From the NCBI GenBank assembly GCA_965221125.1, contig CBDCRW010000007.1:544001-608000 (forward strand): 64,000 nt of DNA, written 5' to 3'. This stretch comes from Alphaproteobacteria bacterium (GTDB taxonomy: Bacteria > Pseudomonadota > Alphaproteobacteria > UBA828). Both the position numbers and the translations under genes were made by a program. This document shows, in pieces, positions 2,366 through 21,034 of the stretch. The notes beneath the pieces were generated by a model. The model worked only from the letters and a program-made list of their open reading frames with translations. It searched no databases and was not told where the DNA came from. Numbering within the stretch: position 1 is the first letter of the stretch; each line of letters starts with the position of its first letter.

Positions 2366-3298
2366 ATGGTCCAACTGATCGTAAGGCGCATCGGCATGAT
2401 GATCCTCATCATGCTGGTCGTCGCGCTACTGCTGTTCCTTATCAACGAGGGCGATCCCCGTCTCATCGCTCGCAGCATTCTCGGTCCCTACGCGCAGGAC
2501 CAGCAGCTCGACGCCTGGGTCATCGAGAATGGTTACGACCGCTCGGTGATTGTCCGTTACTTCGAATGGCTCGGCCGAATATTCGCCGGCGATCTCGGTG
2601 AGTCTGTCATCTACAAACGGCCTGTCAGCGAGATTTTCTGGGACCGCCTCGGCAACACCGGCATCCTCGCCGGCATCACCTTCGTTATCATGGTTCTGAT
2701 CGCGCTGACGCTGGGCGTGCTGGCGGGCATGAAGGAAGGCTCGCCGCAGGACCGCGTGATCTCGGTCTTCTCGATCATCACCACCTCGATCCCGGAATAC
2801 GCCAGCGCGGTCTTCCTCGTCGGCATCTTCGTCTTCTGGCTCGGCATACTGCCGGGCACCTCGTCGATGACGTCCGGGTTCGACCCGGTCCAGATGATCC
2901 TGCCTGTACTTGTGCTGACGCTATACGGCTTCGGCTACATCGCGCGGATGACGCGCGCGTCGATGGCCGAGGTGATGACCACGCCCTACATCCGAACGGC
3001 CGTGCTCAAGGGTCTGCCCTACCGGCACATCATCATGAAGCACGCGCTGCGGAACGCGCTGATCGCGCCGTTTACCGTGATCATGCTGCAGATCAACTGG
3101 CTGCTGTCCGGCGTGGTCGTGACCGAGTTCGCCTTCGGCTACAAGGGATTCGGCGCGCTGCTGCTGGAGGCGGCGCTCCGGCGCGACATCTTCGTCATCG
3201 AGGCCTGCGGCGTCGCGGCGGTCTTCGTCGCGGTCTTTACGCAGACCGTCGGCGATCTCGGCTACACCTATCTGAACCCGAGGATCAGGTTCAAGTGA
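2366..3298 (+). CDS. ABC transporter permease (DppB/OppB-like)
   Basis: Hydrophobic helices; GDLGES; EAA-loop region YIRTAVLKGL...KHALRNALI; C-terminal LNPRIR. Confidence 0.92.
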   Translation: MVQLIVRRIGMMILIMLVVALLLFLINEGDPRLIARSILGPYAQDQQLDAWVIENGYDRSVIVRYFEWLGRIFAGDLGESVIYKRPVSEIFWDRLGNTGILAGITFVIMVLIALTLGVLAGMKEGSPQDRVISVFSIITTSIPEYASAVFLVGIFVFWLGILPGTSSMTSGFDPVQMILPVLVLTLYGFGYIARMTRASMAEVMTTPYIRTAVLKGLPYRHIIMKHALRNALIAPFTVIMLQINWLLSGVVVTEFAFGYKGFGALLLEAALRRDIFVIEACGVAAVFVAVFTQTVGDLGYTYLNPRIRFK

Positions 3299-4200
3299 GC
3301 GACGTGCCCCGCATGAGCCCTGCCAGCACGCCGCTCAGCCGGCTCGGCGCGAGTTTCTCGGCGTCCCTCAAGCCTGTCCTTCTGCTTCGGGAGAGCCCGG
3401 TCGGCATTGTCGGGGGCGGAATCGTCCTCGGTTTCGTGATCCTGGCGATCTTCGCCGAGTACATCGCGCCCTTCGATCCCAATGCGACGATGGTGCCCTT
3501 CACTTTTCCCGGTGCGGAAGCGCCGGACGGGGGCATCTTCCTGCTCGGCACCGACCATCTCGGCCGAGACATCCTGTCGAGAATTATCTTCGGCGGTCAG
3601 CGGGTGCTCTTCTACGCGACCGTTGCCACCGCCGCCGCCTATGTCGTGGGCATCCTCATGGGCCTCGCGGCGGGCTACTTCCGGGGCTACCTGGACGAAC
3701 TCCTGTCGTTCGTCGCGAACGTCATTCTCTCCTTCCCCATCATGGTGCTCTACGTGCTGATCATCGCGAAGGTCGGCGCGTCGGGGATCAACATCATCTT
3801 CGCGGTCGTGTTCGCGTCCTCGCCCGGCATCATGCGCATCGTGCGGGGCGTGACCATGGACATCGCGACCCGCGACTACATCGCCGCCGCCCAGACCCGG
3901 GGCGAGGGGCCCTGGTACATCATGCTGATGGAGATCCTGCCCAATGCGCGGGGGCCGCTGATCGTCGATTTCTGCCTGCGCATGGGCTACACGACCATCA
4001 CCATCGGGGCGCTCGGCTTCCTCGGCCTCGGCCTGCCGCCGCCGGATCCCGACTGGGGCGGCATGATCACCGAGACCCGCGCCTTCGTCTCCGGCGGCTT
4101 CCCCCACATGGCGATCCTGCCGGCCTGCGCCGTCTCCCTGCTGGTGCTCGGCTTCAACCTGCTGGCGGACGGCCTGCGCGAAGTGTCGCTGAAGGACTAG
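3295..4200 (+). CDS. ABC transporter permease (DppC/OppC-like)
   Basis: LLGTDHLGRDILSR, LGFLGLG..PP.PDWG, FNLLADGLRE; GTGA overlap with the upstream gene. Confidence 0.92.
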   Translation: MSDVPRMSPASTPLSRLGASFSASLKPVLLLRESPVGIVGGGIVLGFVILAIFAEYIAPFDPNATMVPFTFPGAEAPDGGIFLLGTDHLGRDILSRIIFGGQRVLFYATVATAAAYVVGILMGLAAGYFRGYLDELLSFVANVILSFPIMVLYVLIIAKVGASGINIIFAVVFASSPGIMRIVRGVTMDIATRDYIAAAQTRGEGPWYIMLMEILPNARGPLIVDFCLRMGYTTITIGALGFLGLGLPPPDPDWGGMITETRAFVSGGFPHMAILPACAVSLLVLGFNLLADGLREVSLKD

Positions 4201-4208
4201 GAGGCGAT

Positions 4209-6320
4209 ATGACCGACCAAGGCTCCGATCCTCCGGTCCTCGAGATCAACGGCCTCTGCCTCAGCTACTACACCCGCGCCGGCGAGGTGCCGGCGGTCTA
4301 CGACTTCGACCTCACCGTGGCCAAGGGGGAATCGGTGGGGCTCGTGGGCGAATCCGGCTGCGGCAAGTCCACCGTCGCCAACGGCATCATGCGCTACATG
4401 GGGCACAACGGCGACATCGTCGGCGGCACCATCAGGTTCAAGGGCCGCGACATGGCCGAGATGTCCGAGGAGGAGATCCGCCGCGTGCGCGGCAAGGACA
4501 TCGCCATGATCTACCAGGAGCCCATGGCGTCGCTCAACCCGAGCCTGACCATCGGCCAGCAGCTCATGGAAGTGCCGATGATCCACGAGGGGGCGAGCCG
4601 GGCCGAGGCCTTCGAGCGCGCCCACGACATGCTGGCGGCGGTGCACATCCCGGACCCGAACCGCCTGATGATCTCGTATCCGCACCAGGTCTCCGGCGGC
4701 CAGCAGCAGCGCGTGGTGATCGCCATGGCGCTGCTCTCGCGGCCGGCGCTGCTGCTGCTCGACGAGCCGACGACGGCGCTCGACGTGACGGTGGAGGCGG
4801 GCATCGTCGAGCTGATCGCCGAGCTCAGCCGCCAGACCGGCTCGTCGCTGCTCTACATCTCCCACAACCTCGGCCTGATGCTCGAGGTCTGCGACCGCAT
4901 CTGCGTGATGTATTCCGGCGAGGTGGTGGAGGAGGGGACGATCGATTCGATCTTCTCCTGGCCCAAGCACCCCTACACGCAAGGGCTCTTCGGCTGTATC
5001 CCGCTGCCGCACGCCGACAAGAACGCGCGCCCCCTCGTTTCCATCAAGGGCCAGCTGCCGCTGCCGCACGAGCGGCCCGAGGGCTGCAACTTCGGCCCAC
5101 GCTGCGGCTTCTTTCAGGGCGGGAAGTGCGACACGGGCCTGATCCCGATGGAGGGCGTGCACACGGACGACGATCCTGCCCATCGCGTGCGCTGCGAGCG
5201 CTGGAACGAGATCGACGTCTCCGAAGTGGTGCGCGTCGACGAGAGCCGCGAGCCCATCGCGGTCGGCGAGACGGTTCTCGAGGTCGCCGACATGCGCAAG
5301 TACTACAAGGTGCGCGACCGCTCGCTGGCGGCGCTCGTCTCGGGCGGCGCCGTGCGGGAAGTGAAGGCGAACGAGAGCATCAGCTTCCGCGCGGGCGAGG
5401 GCGAGACGGTCGCCATCGTGGGCGAATCCGGCTGCGGCAAGTCCACCTTCGCCAAGGTGCTGATGGGGCTGGAGACCGCGACCGACGGCGCGGTCACGCT
5501 GGACGGGACCGACCTCGGCAGCATTCCGGTCAACAAGCGCACGGCGGCGCAGCTCTCCTCGCTGCAGATGGTGTTCCAGAATCCCAACGACACGCTCAAC
5601 CCGTCCCACTCCGTCGGCTACCAGATCGGCCGGGTGATCAAGCGCTTCGGCATCGAACGCGATTCGATCAAGCGTCGGGAGCTGGTGTACGAGCTGCTGG
5701 ATACGGTGAAGCTGCCGCGCGAATTCATGACGCGGAAGCCGCGCCAGCTCTCCGGCGGGCAGAAGCAGCGCGTCGGCATCGCCCGCGCCTTTGCCGGCAA
5801 ACCGAAGACGGTGATCGCGGACGAGCCGATCTCGGCGCTGGACGTCTCGGTGGCGGCGGCGGTGACGGAGCTGCTGATGGACATCCAGCGCGAGCACCGC
5901 ACCACGCTGCTCTTCATCAGCCACGATCTCTCCGCCGTGCGCTATCTCTCGGACCGCGTGGTGGTGATGTACCTCGGCCAGATCATGGAGCGCGGCTCGA
6001 CGGAGCAGATCTTCGCGCCGCCCTATCATCCCTATACCGAGGCGCTGCTCTCCGCCGTGCCGATCGCGGACCCCGAGATCGAGCGGCGGCGCATCGTCCT
6101 GGAAGGCTCGCTGCCGAGTCCGCTCGACCCGCCCAAGGGGTGCCCGTTCTCCACGCGGTGCCCGCGCAAGCTCGGCGCCATCTGCGAGGAGGAGGCGCCG
6201 CCGCTGCAGACCAACGCCGAGCGCCACGTCATCGCCTGCCACATCCCGCTCGATGAGCTGCGCGAGGTCGAGCCCGTGATCTCCATTCCCGACCGCGACG
6301 AAGTCCACGCCGCCCAGTGA
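4209..6320 (+). CDS. Fused dual-domain ABC ATP-binding protein (DppD/DppF-like)
   Basis: Two GESGCGKST Walker A motifs, two SGGQ signatures, two HPYT oligopeptide C-terminal domains. Confidence 0.95.
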   Translation: MTDQGSDPPVLEINGLCLSYYTRAGEVPAVYDFDLTVAKGESVGLVGESGCGKSTVANGIMRYMGHNGDIVGGTIRFKGRDMAEMSEEEIRRVRGKDIAMIYQEPMASLNPSLTIGQQLMEVPMIHEGASRAEAFERAHDMLAAVHIPDPNRLMISYPHQVSGGQQQRVVIAMALLSRPALLLLDEPTTALDVTVEAGIVELIAELSRQTGSSLLYISHNLGLMLEVCDRICVMYSGEVVEEGTIDSIFSWPKHPYTQGLFGCIPLPHADKNARPLVSIKGQLPLPHERPEGCNFGPRCGFFQGGKCDTGLIPMEGVHTDDDPAHRVRCERWNEIDVSEVVRVDESREPIAVGETVLEVADMRKYYKVRDRSLAALVSGGAVREVKANESISFRAGEGETVAIVGESGCGKSTFAKVLMGLETATDGAVTLDGTDLGSIPVNKRTAAQLSSLQMVFQNPNDTLNPSHSVGYQIGRVIKRFGIERDSIKRRELVYELLDTVKLPREFMTRKPRQLSGGQKQRVGIARAFAGKPKTVIADEPISALDVSVAAAVTELLMDIQREHRTTLLFISHDLSAVRYLSDRVVVMYLGQIMERGSTEQIFAPPYHPYTEALLSAVPIADPEIERRRIVLEGSLPSPLDPPKGCPFSTRCPRKLGAICEEEAPPLQTNAERHVIACHIPLDELREVEPVISIPDRDEVHAAQ

Positions 6321-17422: not shown

Positions 17423-17572
17423 CGCGCCTTCGGCGGTCCTTTGATTATGCGCGCCTTCGGCGGCCTTTCGATGCCGCGCGCCTTCGGCGGCCTTTCGATG
17501 CCGCGCGCCTTCGGCGCGACCGAATTCCGCGCGCCTGGCGGCGCGACCGATTCCGCGCGCCTGCCGGCGCGA
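17423..17572. repeat. Tandem array of about six 24-27-bp units with core GCGCGCC(TTC)GGCG (REP-like mini-hairpins)
   Basis: gcgcgccttcggcggcctttcgatgcc occurs twice exactly, flanked by degenerate copies. Confidence 0.8.
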
Positions 17573-17885
17573 CTGTTGCGGGGCTTTTCGGAACCTCGTC
17601 AGCCGTTCTGCCCTATCTCACCTTGTCTCGGCTTGTCTCGGCTTATCTCGGAATTTTGGCCAAAAAAATGGGAATTACATACCTGACTTGACAGCCCCGC
17701 GCTGACCTCTCCCGCCCAAACCGACCTATATGCGCTGGGCGGGAGTGGGGGTTACCTCACCACAGCTCGTCACGTCATGCCACACCATGCCTTGACGCTG
17801 ACCTCTCCCGTCCACACCGCCCTATCAGCCTAGGGTGCGCTCGCTCTAATCCCCACCCTGTGGGCCGTAATCCGCATTTGCGGTC

Positions 17886-17914
17886 TTGACCCGAAATTCC
17901 TGTCACCGTATAAA
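17886..17914 (+). promoter_or_regulatory. sigma70-like promoter
   Basis: TTGACC-N17-TATAAA, predicted start about 17920. Confidence 0.7.
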
Positions 17915-17918
17915 CGGC

Positions 17919-18054
17919 CCGGCGGGCCGCTCTGGTCCGTCAGTGTTTCGGATCCGATTTCAGGGAGAGTCATTCGAGCTCGATTCAGAATGGTGATCGG
18001 CGCGGTCGTCGCTCCTGCCCTTTTGGAGGGGCGTTCACCGCATCAACCCGCCGG
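17919..18054 (+). ncRNA. Putative structured ncRNA A (family not recognised)
   Basis: Begins at the predicted TSS; CCGGCGGG/CCCGCCGG closing stem; inner stems CCGAT/ATCGG, GTCATTC/GAATGGT, GCGGT/ACCGC, GCCCTT/AGGGGC with G.U pairs on +; strong hairpin at 18097-18123. Confidence 0.5.
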
Positions 18055-18642
18055 TCTGGGCTAAGTCGGTTGGACCCGACCGCCCGTTTCCATCCCGCGC
18101 CGCCCTGCCACAGAGGGCGGCGCAACTCCTTTGTATAGAGGGATTCTCGCTCCCGTCAACCGGCATCCCCGCCCGTTCTTAACCCTTTGCTTTTACGTTA
18201 TTTTCGTAGTTTTGGGTTCCTTCTGCCGCTGACCTTATCGCTCTCGCGTATATGACTTTGACGCGCCTCCGCCTCGCGGTGCCCTCGACTCCATCCATCC
18301 CCGCCGTGCCGGACGTGCCCGCGCTGCCCACGGTTCCCGAAATCTCCGCAGAGGCCGCTGAGCGCCCCGTCAGCGCCGCTGCCGATTCTCCCACCCCTCG
18401 CCCTTCAGCCGTCGAGCGCGCCTCTCCACCCGGTTTTCGTCGCGTCCGCGTCCGCGACTAGGCCCCGCGTCCCCATTCTGCCGTCCCCCTGACGGTCCGC
18501 AAATTTCTTTGCGGACCATCTGCAACTTTCCCCGTCCTGATCATTATATGCCTGGGTGCAGTCGGCTCTCCCTGCGCTCGCCCCTCCGCTCTCCCCGCGC
18601 GATTACCGCCAAACTTCTCAGCGGTGGCAGCGAATCCGGGGC

Positions 18643-19614
18643 ATGCCCCAAGCTGCACCCGGCAAGTTCTATCGTCAGGGCATCTCCTGGCCCGAACTGT
18701 TCGCCCGCTTCCCCGACGACGCGGCCGCCGAGGCGTGGTTCGAGGAGCAACGTTGGGGTACTCCTGGTCAGCCGTCCTACTGCCCGCTTTGTGGTGACAC
18801 GGAGCGCCTCCGCCCCACCCCCAACCGCCGCCCGCTCCCCTACTGGTGTGGCGCTTGTCGGTCGTACTTCTCCGTCCGCACCAACACCGTCATGCACCGT
18901 TCCAAGCTCCCGCTCCAGAAATGGGTCATCGCCATCTACCTCTGGGCCACCTCGCTCAAGGGCGTGTCCTCGATGAAGCTCCACCGCGACCTCGGCATTA
19001 CGCAGAAGTCCGCGTGGTTCCTCGCCCAGCGGCTGCGTGCCGCTTGGTCCGCCCCTGCCGACGCGCCGCCCCCGCCGCCCTTGTTCGCCGGTCCCGTGGA
19101 GGTTGACGAGACCTACCTCGGCGGCAAAGAGCGGAACAAACACGCCAAGAAGAAGTTGCGCGCCGGGCGGGGTGCCGTCGGCAAGACCCCCGTTGTTGGT
19201 GCGCTCGATCGCACCGCCAACCAGATCGCTCTCGCCGTGCTGCCCTCGACCGACCGTCCCACCCTGCACGGCTTTATCGAGCAGCACGTGCAACCGGGTG
19301 CCCAAGTGTATACCGACGAGGCCAGCGCCTATCAGCGCATGCCGTTCCCGCACGACGCTGTGAACCACTCGGTCGGCGAGTACGTCCGCGACCAAGCGCA
19401 CACCAACGGCATCGAGTCCTTCTGGGCGACCTTGAAGCGCGCCTACGCCGGCACCTACCACCACATCTCCCCCGAGCACCTCCACCGCTACGTCGGCGAG
19501 TTCGCCGCCCGCCACAACCTCCGCACCCAAGATACCGAGGCTATGATGGCCGAGGCGGTGGCGCAGATGATCGGCAAGCGCCTCACCTACAAAGAACTGA
19601 TCGGGAAGAACTGA
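18643..19614 (+). CDS. IS1595-family (ISXO2-like) DDE transposase
   Basis: N-terminal zinc ribbon CPLCG...WCGAC, HTH region, VEVDETYLGG, VYTDE, HTNGIESFWATLKR. Confidence 0.95.
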   Translation: MPQAAPGKFYRQGISWPELFARFPDDAAAEAWFEEQRWGTPGQPSYCPLCGDTERLRPTPNRRPLPYWCGACRSYFSVRTNTVMHRSKLPLQKWVIAIYLWATSLKGVSSMKLHRDLGITQKSAWFLAQRLRAAWSAPADAPPPPPLFAGPVEVDETYLGGKERNKHAKKKLRAGRGAVGKTPVVGALDRTANQIALAVLPSTDRPTLHGFIEQHVQPGAQVYTDEASAYQRMPFPHDAVNHSVGEYVRDQAHTNGIESFWATLKRAYAGTYHHISPEHLHRYVGEFAARHNLRTQDTEAMMAEAVAQMIGKRLTYKELIGKN

Positions 19615-19752
19615 CTTTATGCGAAGATTATTCCTTGTGGAAAACTTGTATTGTGTGGATAACTTGAATCGACTATCGTTGGGTTTTTAACGGTTTGTTA
19701 GACTCGAGTTTGGTCGAAGGTGTCGGTGGGGCCGCGAGGCTCGTCCGGTGTT

Positions 19753-19843
19753 TGGCGGAGGAGGTGGGATTCGAACCCACGGTACGGCACAGCCGTACAC
19801 CGGTTGCCTAGACCGGCGCCTTCGACCGCTCAGCCACTCCTCC
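19753..19843 (-). tRNA. tRNA with serine-type body and AGG (Pro) anticodon, CCA encoded
   Basis: GGAGGAG TG GCT GAGCGGTCGAA GGC G CCGGT CTAGGCA ACCGG T GTACGGC TGT GCCGTAC C GTGGG TTCGAAT CCCAC CTCCTCC G CCA; fully paired cloverleaf, long variable arm, G73. Confidence 0.9.
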
Positions 19844-19855
19844 GCGACCTTAGAC

Positions 19856-19885
19856 ACCATAACTTGATCGCGTGGCGGTCGTCAA
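19856..19885 (-). promoter_or_regulatory. sigma70-like promoter for the tRNA(AGG) gene
   Basis: Minus strand TTGACG-N18-TATGGT, ending 12 nt before tRNA G1. Confidence 0.55.
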
Positions 19886-19982
19886 CGCAACAGGTCGCCG
19901 GATACGCCAGATGTAGCAAGCCGGCGCCGGCTTGCTACATCCCGCCTGCCTCGTGAGGCGCATCAGTTCCAGCATCTAGCGA

Positions 19983-20011
19983 TTGCGCCCGCATTGTGCC
20001 TCCGTTACGCT
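19983..20011 (+). promoter_or_regulatory. sigma70-like promoter
   Basis: TTGCGC-N17-TACGCT, predicted start about 20018, matching the 5' end of the downstream stem. Confidence 0.5.
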
Positions 20012-20018
20012 CTCCCTC

Positions 20019-20144
20019 GTCAATGACACGCGGAGCCCGCACGTCGGGTCGCCCGCCGAATACAACAGCCGCACGACCCGGCACGGGGTAGCTCCCCGCG
20101 CTTGGCGAATAGGCGGGACTTCACGCTATCCGTGTGTCGTTGAC
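20019..20144 (+). ncRNA. Putative pseudoknotted ncRNA B (family not recognised)
   Basis: 16-bp closing stem 20019-20034/20129-20144 whose two non-Watson-Crick pairs are G.U on +; inner stem 20043-20051/20074-20082; loop CCCGCC complementary to GGCGGG at 20112-20117. Confidence 0.55.
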
Positions 20145-20213
20145 ACGGCCCGGCACCCGCCGGGCCGCGAGCCGCCCTATATCGGTCGGTTCCAGCGGGC
20201 AGCGGAGGGCGAC

Positions 20214-20588
20214 ATGTGGAAAGCCATTACTCTCAGTCTAGTTCTGGCCTTGAGTTCGGCTGCGCCGACCTGGGCGCAGGATTCTGGCAACGAATTCGTC
20301 ATCACTGTGCCAACAGACTTGGATACGCGCTTGTTCTTTGTGGCGGAGACGCTATCTCCCCATAGGGTGCAAGTGGGGTCGCCGTACAATTATGGTTCGA
20401 TGTACGAAGGTGAGCGGCAACGGCTGGTTCAATTCGCTCGCTGGGGGTGTCAACTCTATGGTCGGGATCGTCTTGCTTATGTCGGAATACAAACCAATGA
20501 TCAACGTTGTGACGAAATGGGTGCGGCCGCCGCCGAGCGCGATCCTCATTGCTACCACATCCACACCTTCGTGTGCGTTGAGCGGTGA
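20214..20588 (+). CDS. Hypothetical secreted protein (124 aa), transposon passenger
   Basis: GGAGGG RBS; signal peptide MWKAITLSLVLALSSAAPTWA; 4 Cys; AT-richer codon usage than host genes. Confidence 0.7.
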   Translation: MWKAITLSLVLALSSAAPTWAQDSGNEFVITVPTDLDTRLFFVAETLSPHRVQVGSPYNYGSMYEGERQRLVQFARWGCQLYGRDRLAYVGIQTNDQRCDEMGAAAAERDPHCYHIHTFVCVER

Positions 20589-20628
20589 GTCGAGTCTCTC
20601 GGCTCGACCTGATGCGCGCCAGTGTTGA

Positions 20629-20721
20629 TGGCGGCGCGTCTAGGAGTTGAACCTAAAACGCCCTGGGGGACGTTCGCTCGGATTGTCAATCCGGCCTCCG
20701 GACCGCCGGAGATGGCGCGCC
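20629..20721 (-). tRNA. allo-tRNA-like gene (8/4 fold, Sec-type D arm, long variable arm), anticodon GAC (Val), CCA encoded
   Basis: GGCGCGCC AT CTCCGG CGGT CCGGAG G CCGGA TTGACAA TCCGA GC GAACGTCC CCCA GGGCGTTT TAGG TTCAACT CCTA GACGCGCC G CCA; one C.A mismatch in the acceptor stem and one at the top of the anticodon stem. Confidence 0.75.
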
Positions 20722-21034
20722 GCCATCTCCGGGAACCCACAATGTAATTCGCAGATCGCTCTGCTTCGCGCTAAGTGATTGATTCCACGTGTCAAGTCAG
20801 GTATATAAATCCCAAAAAAATGTCCTGCCAAACCGAGATACGCCGCATGGGAGCGCCGCATGTTCTCTGTGTGTTCCATGCGGGGAGGTCGCGGATATGG
20901 TCGTCTAAGGCGGCATCGCGGATGCTCACATCGCGGATGCGCCGGCTGCGTTTCGCCCGCCGCCCGACTATCCTGAACGCCCGCCGGAACGGTTCCGCCC
21001 GCGCCGCACAACCCCACAGCCGGAGGCCAGACGC

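Follow-up and report, generated by a model that had tools for sequence, protein, structure and literature searches.

The window analysed here, a 64,000-nucleotide stretch of an alphaproteobacterial contig (CBDCRW010000007.1, assembly GCA_965221125.1), contains at 17670-20813 one insertion sequence (IS) of the IS1595 family, 3144 bp (3.1 kb) in length, which carries its transposase and three cargo modules: a tRNA gene with a serine-type body and the anticodon AGG, a leader RNA with the gene of a secreted protein, and a tRNA gene of 8/4 architecture (an 8-bp acceptor stem and a 4-bp T-stem) with the anticodon GAC. Our best guess, to which we give a probability of about 0.42, is that the two tRNAs cause missense suppression at a low level, weakly or under certain conditions, after charging by seryl-tRNA synthetase (SerRS). 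The enzyme reads the long variable arm and discriminator base and not the anticodon, and both cargo tRNAs are therefore most likely charged with serine. So charged, they would act as weak or conditional missense suppressors that place serine at CCU and at GUC and GUU, and the transposon would carry these suppressors from genome to genome. Possible gains to the element or to the host are a stress-linked diversification of the proteome, addiction, or interference with invaders.

A bounded and recently active IS1595 element

The element is a bounded, recently active transposon with an empty-site control. Its terminal inverted repeats (TIRs), at 17670-17693 on the plus strand and 20790-20813 on the minus strand, are 24 bp long and match at 22 of 24 positions by reading, while a repeat search gives 25 nt at 92%; no further copies of these ends occur in the rest of the 4.58-Mb assembly. 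Abutting both TIRs on the outside are the two copies of an 8-bp target-site duplication (TSD), AAAAAAAT, at 17662-17669 and 20814-20821, which were found by reading and match at 8/8 positions. In a congener (G007) the two flanks are contiguous, with a single AAAAAAAT and no insert, which is a genuine empty site, and the genes flanking the insertion keep their synteny in genomes of the same genus. The insertion is thus that of an IS1595-family transporter IS into an AT-rich intergenic site. Its left-end type, GGnnATTATATAC..., is common to 74 cleanly bounded relatives. The ends, which begin with GGGAATTA and GGGATTTA, together with the length of 3144 bp, fit what we take to be the marks of the ISNwi1 subgroup in ISfinder, namely characteristic ends and a size above ~1.7 kb.

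The transposase (18643-19614, plus strand) is an intact DDE enzyme of 323 aa whose start is conserved in a metagenomic relative (L178, see below). It matches Pfam PF12762 at 1.3e-43 and the NCBIfam IS1595 model (NF033547) with 189.5 bits, against a cut-off of 75, and its N-terminal zinc ribbon (PF12760) scores 17.5 bits, below the cut-off of 25.4, with two Cys pairs (CPLC ... CGAC) in the translation. The closest plasmid-borne transposases are at most 43% identical. The gene is the sole long frame of the element and takes up 972 of its 3144 bp. An earlier note, drawn from the sequence alone, had proposed a mobile IS1595 element with an intact transposase using about 1 kb of 3.1 kb, and had taken both tRNAs for cargo and not for insertion targets; the ends, the duplication and the two family models bear out the former, and the tRNAs are indeed found between the ends and not at the empty site, an allele that the note had recommended looking for. 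The host genome has 68-70% GC, a two-piece tmRNA and a full tRNA set of its own, including Pro CGG/UGG/GGG, Val GAC/CAC/UAC and four Ser isoacceptors.

Immediately to the left of the insertion site, 17423-17651 contains tandem repeats whose units measure 27, 26 and 10 nt (GTCTCGGCTT-like). The sister element described below also has the 10-nt repeat nearby, and the stretch has dozens of short genus-wide matches, so that it behaves like an intergenic repeat of the repetitive extragenic palindromic (REP) type.

Two tRNA genes whose bodies and anticodons disagree

The first tRNA gene (19753-19843, minus strand) is a class-II tRNA of 7/5 architecture, labelled 'tRNA-Pro(agg)' with 91 nt by ARAGORN and matching the Rfam tRNA model with 50.7 bits. 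The acceptor, D, anticodon and T stems as well as the 7-bp variable stem pair without a mismatch. The anticodon loop reads CUAGGCA, the variable arm is long, the T-loop is canonical, and G18G19, U33, G73 and a CCA encoded in the gene are all present. Its T-arm and D-loop are the same as in the host tRNA-Ser genes, which likewise encode CCA; it can be aligned with the host tRNA-Ser genes for GCU, UGA and CGA, and it is closest to the genus's own tRNA-Ser(GCU). The long arm, the serine-type D-arm and G73 are those of a tRNA-Ser isoacceptor, and the earlier reading of a serine body with an AGG anticodon therefore stands. We rejected the gene as a decoder of serine codons, since AGG is no serine anticodon and reads the proline codon CCU, although towards the synthetase it may behave as a tRNA-Ser. 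A sigma-70-like promoter (19856-19885, minus strand; TTGACG, 18 nt, TATGGT) ends 13 nt before the 5' end of tRNA(AGG). It is the sole such site in 17600-20900, where 0.8 are expected by chance, and is suggestive only.

The gene and this promoter-like site lie in a 392-bp module (19615-20006) between the transposase stop and the leader cassette, which we call slot 1 for reasons given below. A paralogue in the genome G006 (L155:692-781, G006:C54) has a near-identical body with the loop UUCCGAG, the anticodon CCG and A73; the paralogy extends over ~55 nt of the 3' flank, and a -10-like box stands at the equivalent place upstream. Its neighbours, close to the end of the contig, are a fragment of an IS4-like transposase and a gene of a Mu-like phage, and it lies outside any IS1595 element. 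Within slot 1, 19910-19941 is a perfect palindrome with overlapping 17-nt arms (fold z -3.39), which separates the leader from the divergent promoter-like site of tRNA(AGG) and could be an operator or an insulator hairpin.

The second tRNA gene (20629-20721, minus strand) has an 8-bp acceptor stem (seven pairs and one C.A), two linker bases and a 4-bp T-stem, a 6-bp D-stem with a CGGU tetraloop, the anticodon loop UUGACAA, an 8-bp variable arm, G73 and CCA. Its anticodon stem can be drawn with 5 bp and a terminal C.A or with 6 bp and a bulged A. ARAGORN misses the gene at default settings and forces a 7/4 reading with mismatches at relaxed thresholds, while the minimum-energy fold is the 8/4 cloverleaf (z -3.1) and a descriptor for the exact 8/4 architecture finds this gene and one other in 5.46 Mb. 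The descriptor and the fold thus uphold the earlier note's 8/4 tRNA(GAC), with the correction that it belongs to an already described class: the 8/4 split, the long D-stem with tetraloop, the long variable arm and G73 with a non-serine anticodon are those of the allo-tRNAs, a group of 8/4 and 9/3 tRNAs of serine identity with non-serine anticodons, a G73 or U73 discriminator and an anticodon stem lengthened to 6 bp (Mukai 2017, PMC5389517), and on these features of its sequence we assign it to that class. The gene also matches the Rfam model of selenocysteine tRNA, tRNA-Sec (RF01852), with 52.9 bits against a gathering score of 47. This match is not diagnostic because ordinary tRNA-Ser genes score as high, those of the host reaching 52.3 and 51.2 bits in a genome search in which 150 of 810 candidates were scored and tRNA(GAC) was not among the genes listed. 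The likeness to tRNA-Sec extends to the long acceptor stem, the 6-bp D-stem and the long variable arm; identity with it is ruled out by the anticodon, which is GAC and not UCA, and by the fold, which is 8/4 and not the bacterial 8/5. In a BLAST search of the whole element against 60 related genomes, tRNA(GAC) and the gene of the secreted protein were unmatched among the matches listed.

Atypical tRNAs in related elements

We gathered 160 relatives of the transposase, 80 from genomes and 80 from metagenomes, and sought their ends by automatic search. The same end type with a perfect 8-bp TSD bounds 74 of the 160, and 63 of these 74 measure at least 1.7 kb (median 2.33 kb), so that cargo as such is normal in the clade. 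Six further IS1595 elements proved to carry atypical tRNAs, four of them with clean ends and a duplication. One is the metagenomic L178, whose transposase is 85% identical and whose layout is that of the window: transposase, minus-strand tRNA(UCC), leader, open reading frame (ORF) and minus-strand tRNA(GCG). The automatic TIR caller failed on L178, and its ends (2801-5489) were set by eye, with a TSD that matches at 7/8 positions. The tRNA(UCC), of 72 nt, occupies slot 1, the leader RNA is 94% identical, the ORF is a different one (152 aa), and the tRNA(GCG) combines an acceptor stem of 8 bp and a T-stem of 4 bp with a serine-type D-arm.

A sister clade within the genus, at ~50% amino acid identity, comprises elements in G000, G004 and G003, all with matching ends and, in G004 and G003, with a TSD of 8/8. 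In G000 the cargo of the sister element is a class-I tRNA with U73 whose anticodon, GGA, is one of serine; the G004 element (L086) has a tRNA(GAC) and a tRNA with an 8-nt loop, and the G003 element an 8/4 allo-tRNA(GCG) that scores 70.3 bits. The tRNAs stand at the same place in all three, divergent from the transposase and behind a conserved upstream motif. In a fourth lineage, also from a genome of the genus (G020), a serine-like tRNA(GUU) lies between transposase and leader in an element whose ends have an 8-bp TSD, and in a Dehalococcoidia element (L102) a textbook 8/4 tRNA(GAG) follows 320 bp downstream of the transposase; the ends of the latter are weak (15/20), and the automatic caller gave no TSD. 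Our 8/4 model, R1, had no further strong match in the 80 genome loci and 19 genus loci, and one, that in G003, in a family search.

Close variants of the window element itself vary in the same region. In run X8 one contig has a tRNA(AGG) that differs at 4 of 87 nt, next to a leader that differs at 1 of 184, and contigs of run X5 cover the 124-aa secreted-protein frame (ORF124), tRNA(GAC) and the right end with 5 to 8 differing letters per contig (96-97% identity); parts of the element are without cover in runs X5, X6 and X8. In one X5 contig position 19614 is joined directly to 20007, so that the 392-bp AGG module is missing. This junction and L178 make the stretch from transposase stop to leader a variable slot that is empty or holds UCC or AGG. 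On these comparisons, the recurring positions in related IS1595 elements behave as exchangeable tRNA slots.

Other associations between this family and tRNA genes came to light in the same searches. A Chloroflexota contig of 2236 nt from a metagenome-assembled genome (MAG), too short for element ends, has an IS1595 transposase flanked by a tRNA(GCC) and a second tRNA (L105:760-835 and 2024-2110), the second being class-II and leucine-like (A73) with the proline anticodon CGG; leucyl-tRNA synthetase also ignores the anticodon. A compact IS1595 element of 1.5 kb on a metagenomic contig has an 8/4 allo-tRNA(UAU) (L252:754-841; 43.2 bits on R1) at a distance of 2.2 kb upstream, beyond its ends. 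Four IS1595 relatives (L093, L216, L069 and L059) lie 45-200 bp from ordinary tRNA genes, which suggests a preference for the AT-rich DNA there and a route of tRNA capture. In G000, a duplication of at least 5.2 kb with 100% identity (G000:C7:84000-89204 and G000:C5:1607-6811) stops no more than 3 bp from the right end of the sister IS1595 element, extends leftwards past the left end of that element, and may be a larger composite unit or an assembly repeat. The same genome has a fifth serine-like tRNA (G000:C3:534997-535084) with a 6-nt anticodon loop (CUCGAA) and an A.C acceptor mismatch, probably a damaged copy of tRNA-Ser(CGA).

Constraint on the tRNA bodies

Between the window tRNA(AGG) and the G006 tRNA(CCG), 5 of the 7 loop positions differ, against 6 of 84 other positions (Fisher p = 1.8e-4), and one acceptor pair has changed from A-U to G-C. 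Of 21 genus genomes, 20 have the tRNA-Ser(GCU) segment of the host without any change. When five 8/4 genes are aligned to model R1, 97% of the cells pair and double changes are found in 19 of 30 pairs, while controls in which the partners were slid by 1-3 columns give 36-53% pairing; these figures come from five sequences only, two of which trained R1, in an alignment fitted to the model. Covariation among the five extends to the 8th acceptor pair and to the first pair of the T-stem. This pattern of conserved bodies, divergent loops and compensatory changes argues against random decay. The relatives also bear on the family proposed in the earlier note, which was to show itself by tRNA cargo of varied anticodons: such relatives exist, and their stems are intact and covarying.

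Weighing the possible functions

The earlier note put forward Pro->Ser and Val->Ser mistranslation with an addiction, anti-phage or stress role, or a supply of decoy tRNAs, and these are candidate functions. In favour of serine charging, the features that SerRS reads are present in the cargo tRNAs. Support also comes from the allo-tRNA survey: 8/4 and 9/3 allo-tRNAs insert serine at leucine codons in E. coli, where SerRS accepts both bodies, and their induction leads to growth arrest and cell death (PMC5389517). A series of observations weighs against it. GUC makes up 35.4 per 1000 host codons and 47% of the valine codons, so that an efficient Ser-tRNA(GAC) should be very toxic; CCU accounts for 5% of host proline codons. 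The tRNA(GAC) has the C.A mismatch in its acceptor stem and the irregular anticodon stem, and shows C3:G70 where four of five relatives have A:U. The tRNA(AGG) combines a C at position 37, normally a purine in tRNAs, with A34, which bacteria rarely use. Furthermore, G35-G36, A35-C36 and C35-G36 are identity elements of the prolyl-, valyl- and arginyl-tRNA synthetases (ProRS, ValRS and ArgRS), and the cargo tRNAs could be charged with their cognate amino acid or with both. The same slots also hold tRNAs without a long arm, the G000 sister tRNA(GGA) with U73 and the L178 tRNA(UCC), which cannot be substrates of SerRS, and serine charging is therefore no unifying theme. Lastly, only 3 of the 160 transposase relatives (L086, L102 and L178) have tRNA genes within their ends. 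We also considered whether the tRNAs target only rare host codons and dropped the idea: it is true for CCU and GGA and fails for GUC, CGC, AAC and CUC.

The alternative that survives best, which we think somewhat unlikely, is that the tRNAs are expressed and do not decode. As mimics they would engage tRNA-targeting toxins, nucleases or modification enzymes as decoys or sponges, or have a regulatory role, or serve tRNA-dependent transferases as donors, and selection would hold the body and leave the anticodon loop free. The conserved body and scrambled loop in the comparison of AGG with CCG are consistent with this, as are the unusual C37 of tRNA(AGG) and the mixture of body types in the same slots, including tRNAs without a long arm; however, G73, CCA, U33 and 7-nt loops have all been kept, as for decoding tRNAs. 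Allo-tRNA genes near toxin-antitoxin systems, inactive allo-tRNA(UAU) species and the suggestion of non-translational roles point the same way (PMC5389517), and such roles are also raised in a review (PMC7609411), but the tested allo-tRNAs of the same fold are translationally active (PMC5389517). As for a target, the MenT3 toxin reportedly prefers serine tRNAs (PMC11541572), and the host has one AbiEii/MenT-family match; this single match is unlinked, on another contig, and no tRNA-targeting toxin or tRNA-dependent enzyme was found within any element examined.

Distinctly less probable is that the tRNAs are functionless hitch-hikers, an IS1595 element having landed beside a tRNA gene and captured it, after which the redundant copy drifts. 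The four relatives 45-200 bp from ordinary tRNA genes show the kind of landing that this would need, and the closeness of tRNA(AGG) to the tRNA-Ser(GCU) of the genus, the mismatches in tRNA(GAC) and in the L178 tRNA(UCC), the X5 variant without the AGG module and the rarity of cargo tRNAs (3/160) would all follow from it. Yet drift would strike stems and loops alike, whereas the changes cluster in the anticodon loop (p = 1.8e-4) and those in the stems are compensatory. Nor are the 8/4 bodies copies of any host tRNA, and the hitch-hiking account fits poorly with atypical tRNAs at one slot in three sister-clade elements behind a shared upstream motif and with the retention of promoter-like sites. 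Ordinary supplementary tRNAs, charged by ProRS, ValRS and ArgRS through the anticodon bases that these enzymes recognise and serving low-GC cargo genes as phage tRNAs do, are very improbable, for although the cargo ORFs are AT-richer (55% GC and a GC content at third codon positions, GC3, of 0.58, the host set used for comparison having been chosen for a GC3 of 0.80 or more) and the host seldom uses CCU and GGA, the acceptor-end identity elements for Pro, Val and Arg are missing from the serine-type and 8/4 bodies with G73, the codons GUC, CGC and AAC are abundant in the host and already served by its own tRNAs, and ORF124 contains 1 CCU and 5 GUY codons only.

The leader RNA, the secreted protein and the upstream region

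The middle cargo module begins with a conserved structured leader RNA (20007-20172, plus strand; core 20043-20167), whose real extent is about 20007/20036-20172 and which is defined by a weak Rfam match, a 36-sequence alignment and a consensus fold. The match is to sRNA-Xcc1 (RF02221), with 33.7 bits, below the gathering score of 53 (E 0.0033), and this is the one match, itself weak, to RF02221 in the whole genome. We collected 35 distinct copies of the leader from the host genome, from the genus and from five further loci, one of them in a Terriglobia MAG (L045); with the L178 copy added, RNAalifold predicted 26 pairs in the 36 sequences, 12 of them with a compensatory change. In ~27 of the 35 copies a signal-peptide or lipoprotein-type ORF starts a few tens of bases downstream, the hydrophobic N-termini having been judged by reading the ORFs. 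The position of these ORFs makes the RNA a leader of secreted-protein genes and not a free-standing RNA. Copies are found at G000:C4:446961-447121, at L032:5566-5706 and at 30+ genus loci, many per genome and upstream of unrelated genes, both within and outside IS1595 elements. The leader may move as a 5' cassette or serve to regulate exported proteins. The earlier note had seen two unknown structured RNAs in the element; this one is real and conserved, though as the leader of a secreted-protein gene with a distant likeness to sRNA-Xcc1 it is hardly unknown, while a second, for which the note gave no coordinates, could not be substantiated.

Downstream of the leader, the 124-aa protein (20214-20588, plus strand) has 4 Cys and, as the earlier note had read it, a predicted N-terminal signal peptide: its hydrophobic N-terminus ends at TWA/QD. 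In base composition the frame stands apart, with 55% GC against 69% for the genome. A single homologue, at 53% identity, was found among 5.8 billion clusters, and Pfam and NCBIfam gave no family for ORF124, for a 69-aa frame upstream of the transposase or for the 152-aa ORF of L178.

The region between the left TIR and the transposase (17694-18642, plus strand) has two direct repeats of 30 nt (17700-17729 and 17796-17825) and a number of promoter-like stretches, together with a segment that may be stem-closed and a Pro-rich frame. The candidate segment, 18041-18180, would be the best claimant to a second structured RNA, with a fold z of -2.74 against shuffles, the other upstream segments not being significant; it has no homologue among the matches listed and no depth in three other runs. 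The Pro-rich frame (18252-18461) has 69 codons. The stretch 18258-18465 is 94-97% identical in contigs of two other runs, where the transposase is at ~87-89%, and in L178 the conservation of the frame is limited to its first nine codons. The stretch may encode a peptide or act as an RNA or as a binding site.

Relation to known systems and significance

The IS1595 family is reportedly home to 'transporter IS' with passenger genes, as Siguier, Gagnevin and Chandler are said to have described in 2009, the passengers being protein-coding. The window element has the transposase domain DDE_Tnp_IS1595, TIRs starting with GG, an 8-bp AT-rich TSD and extra genes between its ends in common with them; unlike those described, its passengers include tRNA genes and a structured leader RNA. 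A dedicated mistranslation system, tRNAProA with ProRSx in Streptomyces, was reportedly presented by Vargas-Rodriguez and colleagues in 2021; it is said to have its own synthetase and not to be transposon-borne. There, as with the cargo tRNAs, body and anticodon disagree beside a normal tRNA set, but the IS1595 element encodes no synthetase and the host SerRS is the presumed partner.

The tRNA(GAC) shares with the allo-tRNAs a 12-bp acceptor branch of 8/4 type, a 6-bp D-stem with tetraloop, the long arm, G73 and a non-serine anticodon (PMC5389517), and related IS1595 elements carry GCG and GAG versions. The survey places allo-tRNAs in Proteobacteria and Acidobacteria, near toxin-antitoxin genes, with one pseudogene that overlaps a transposon-related ORF, and an association with transposable elements was already suspected there (Mukai 2017, PMC5389517). 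In contrast to the survey, the genes described here lie within IS1595 ends, with a TSD, an empty site and recurring slots, and beside 7/5 serine-type tRNAs whose anticodons are switched too. A valine anticodon appears once only in the survey (PMC5389517), and here it is GAC. The leader has its closest parallel in sRNA-Xcc1, which two accounts describe as integron-, transposon- and plasmid-borne and as standing upstream of symE in Xanthomonas cassettes (10.1101/2025.06.18.660453; PMC12189769). The two RNAs are alike in a closing helix, a nested three-helix arm, a second hairpin and single-stranded motifs, and both are mobile and precede a cargo ORF in the same orientation (10.1101/2025.06.18.660453); they differ in the sub-threshold score and in the downstream products, which are of signal-peptide or lipoprotein type and not SymE.

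We found no paper on tRNA genes as cargo of IS1595 or of other IS in the open-access literature, the supplements of PMC5389517, which may show IS1595-type neighbours, lying outside that search. Allo-tRNAs, the mobile sRNA-Xcc1 and cargo-bearing IS1595 elements were each already known separately. As far as the literature search reaches, the following is new: bounded IS1595 elements have tRNA genes among their cargo, this recurs in several lineages of the transposase and in at least two phyla, atypical tRNAs replace one another slot by slot, and 7/5 tRNA-Ser bodies with remodelled anticodon loops travel together with 8/4 allo-tRNAs. A bolder proposal, which we consider unlikely, is that IS1595 transporters have dedicated, promoter-equipped tRNA slots in which 8/4 allo-tRNAs, anticodon-switched tRNA-Ser and arm-less tRNAs with serine anticodons are swapped like cassettes. 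Such slots would make codon reassignment or translation perturbation a horizontally mobile trait across phyla, used as a conditional mistranslation or addiction device or against invaders.

tRNAs whose body and anticodon do not match are among the few natural candidates for deliberate mistranslation, and their vehicle has so far only been suspected to be transposable. The element described here provides a concrete transposon vehicle, along with relatives in which other tRNAs fill the same slots. Searches for IS cargo ought to include RNA genes, which escape standard tRNA finders and protein-based annotation. tRNAs that potentially misread the genetic code appear to be mobile.

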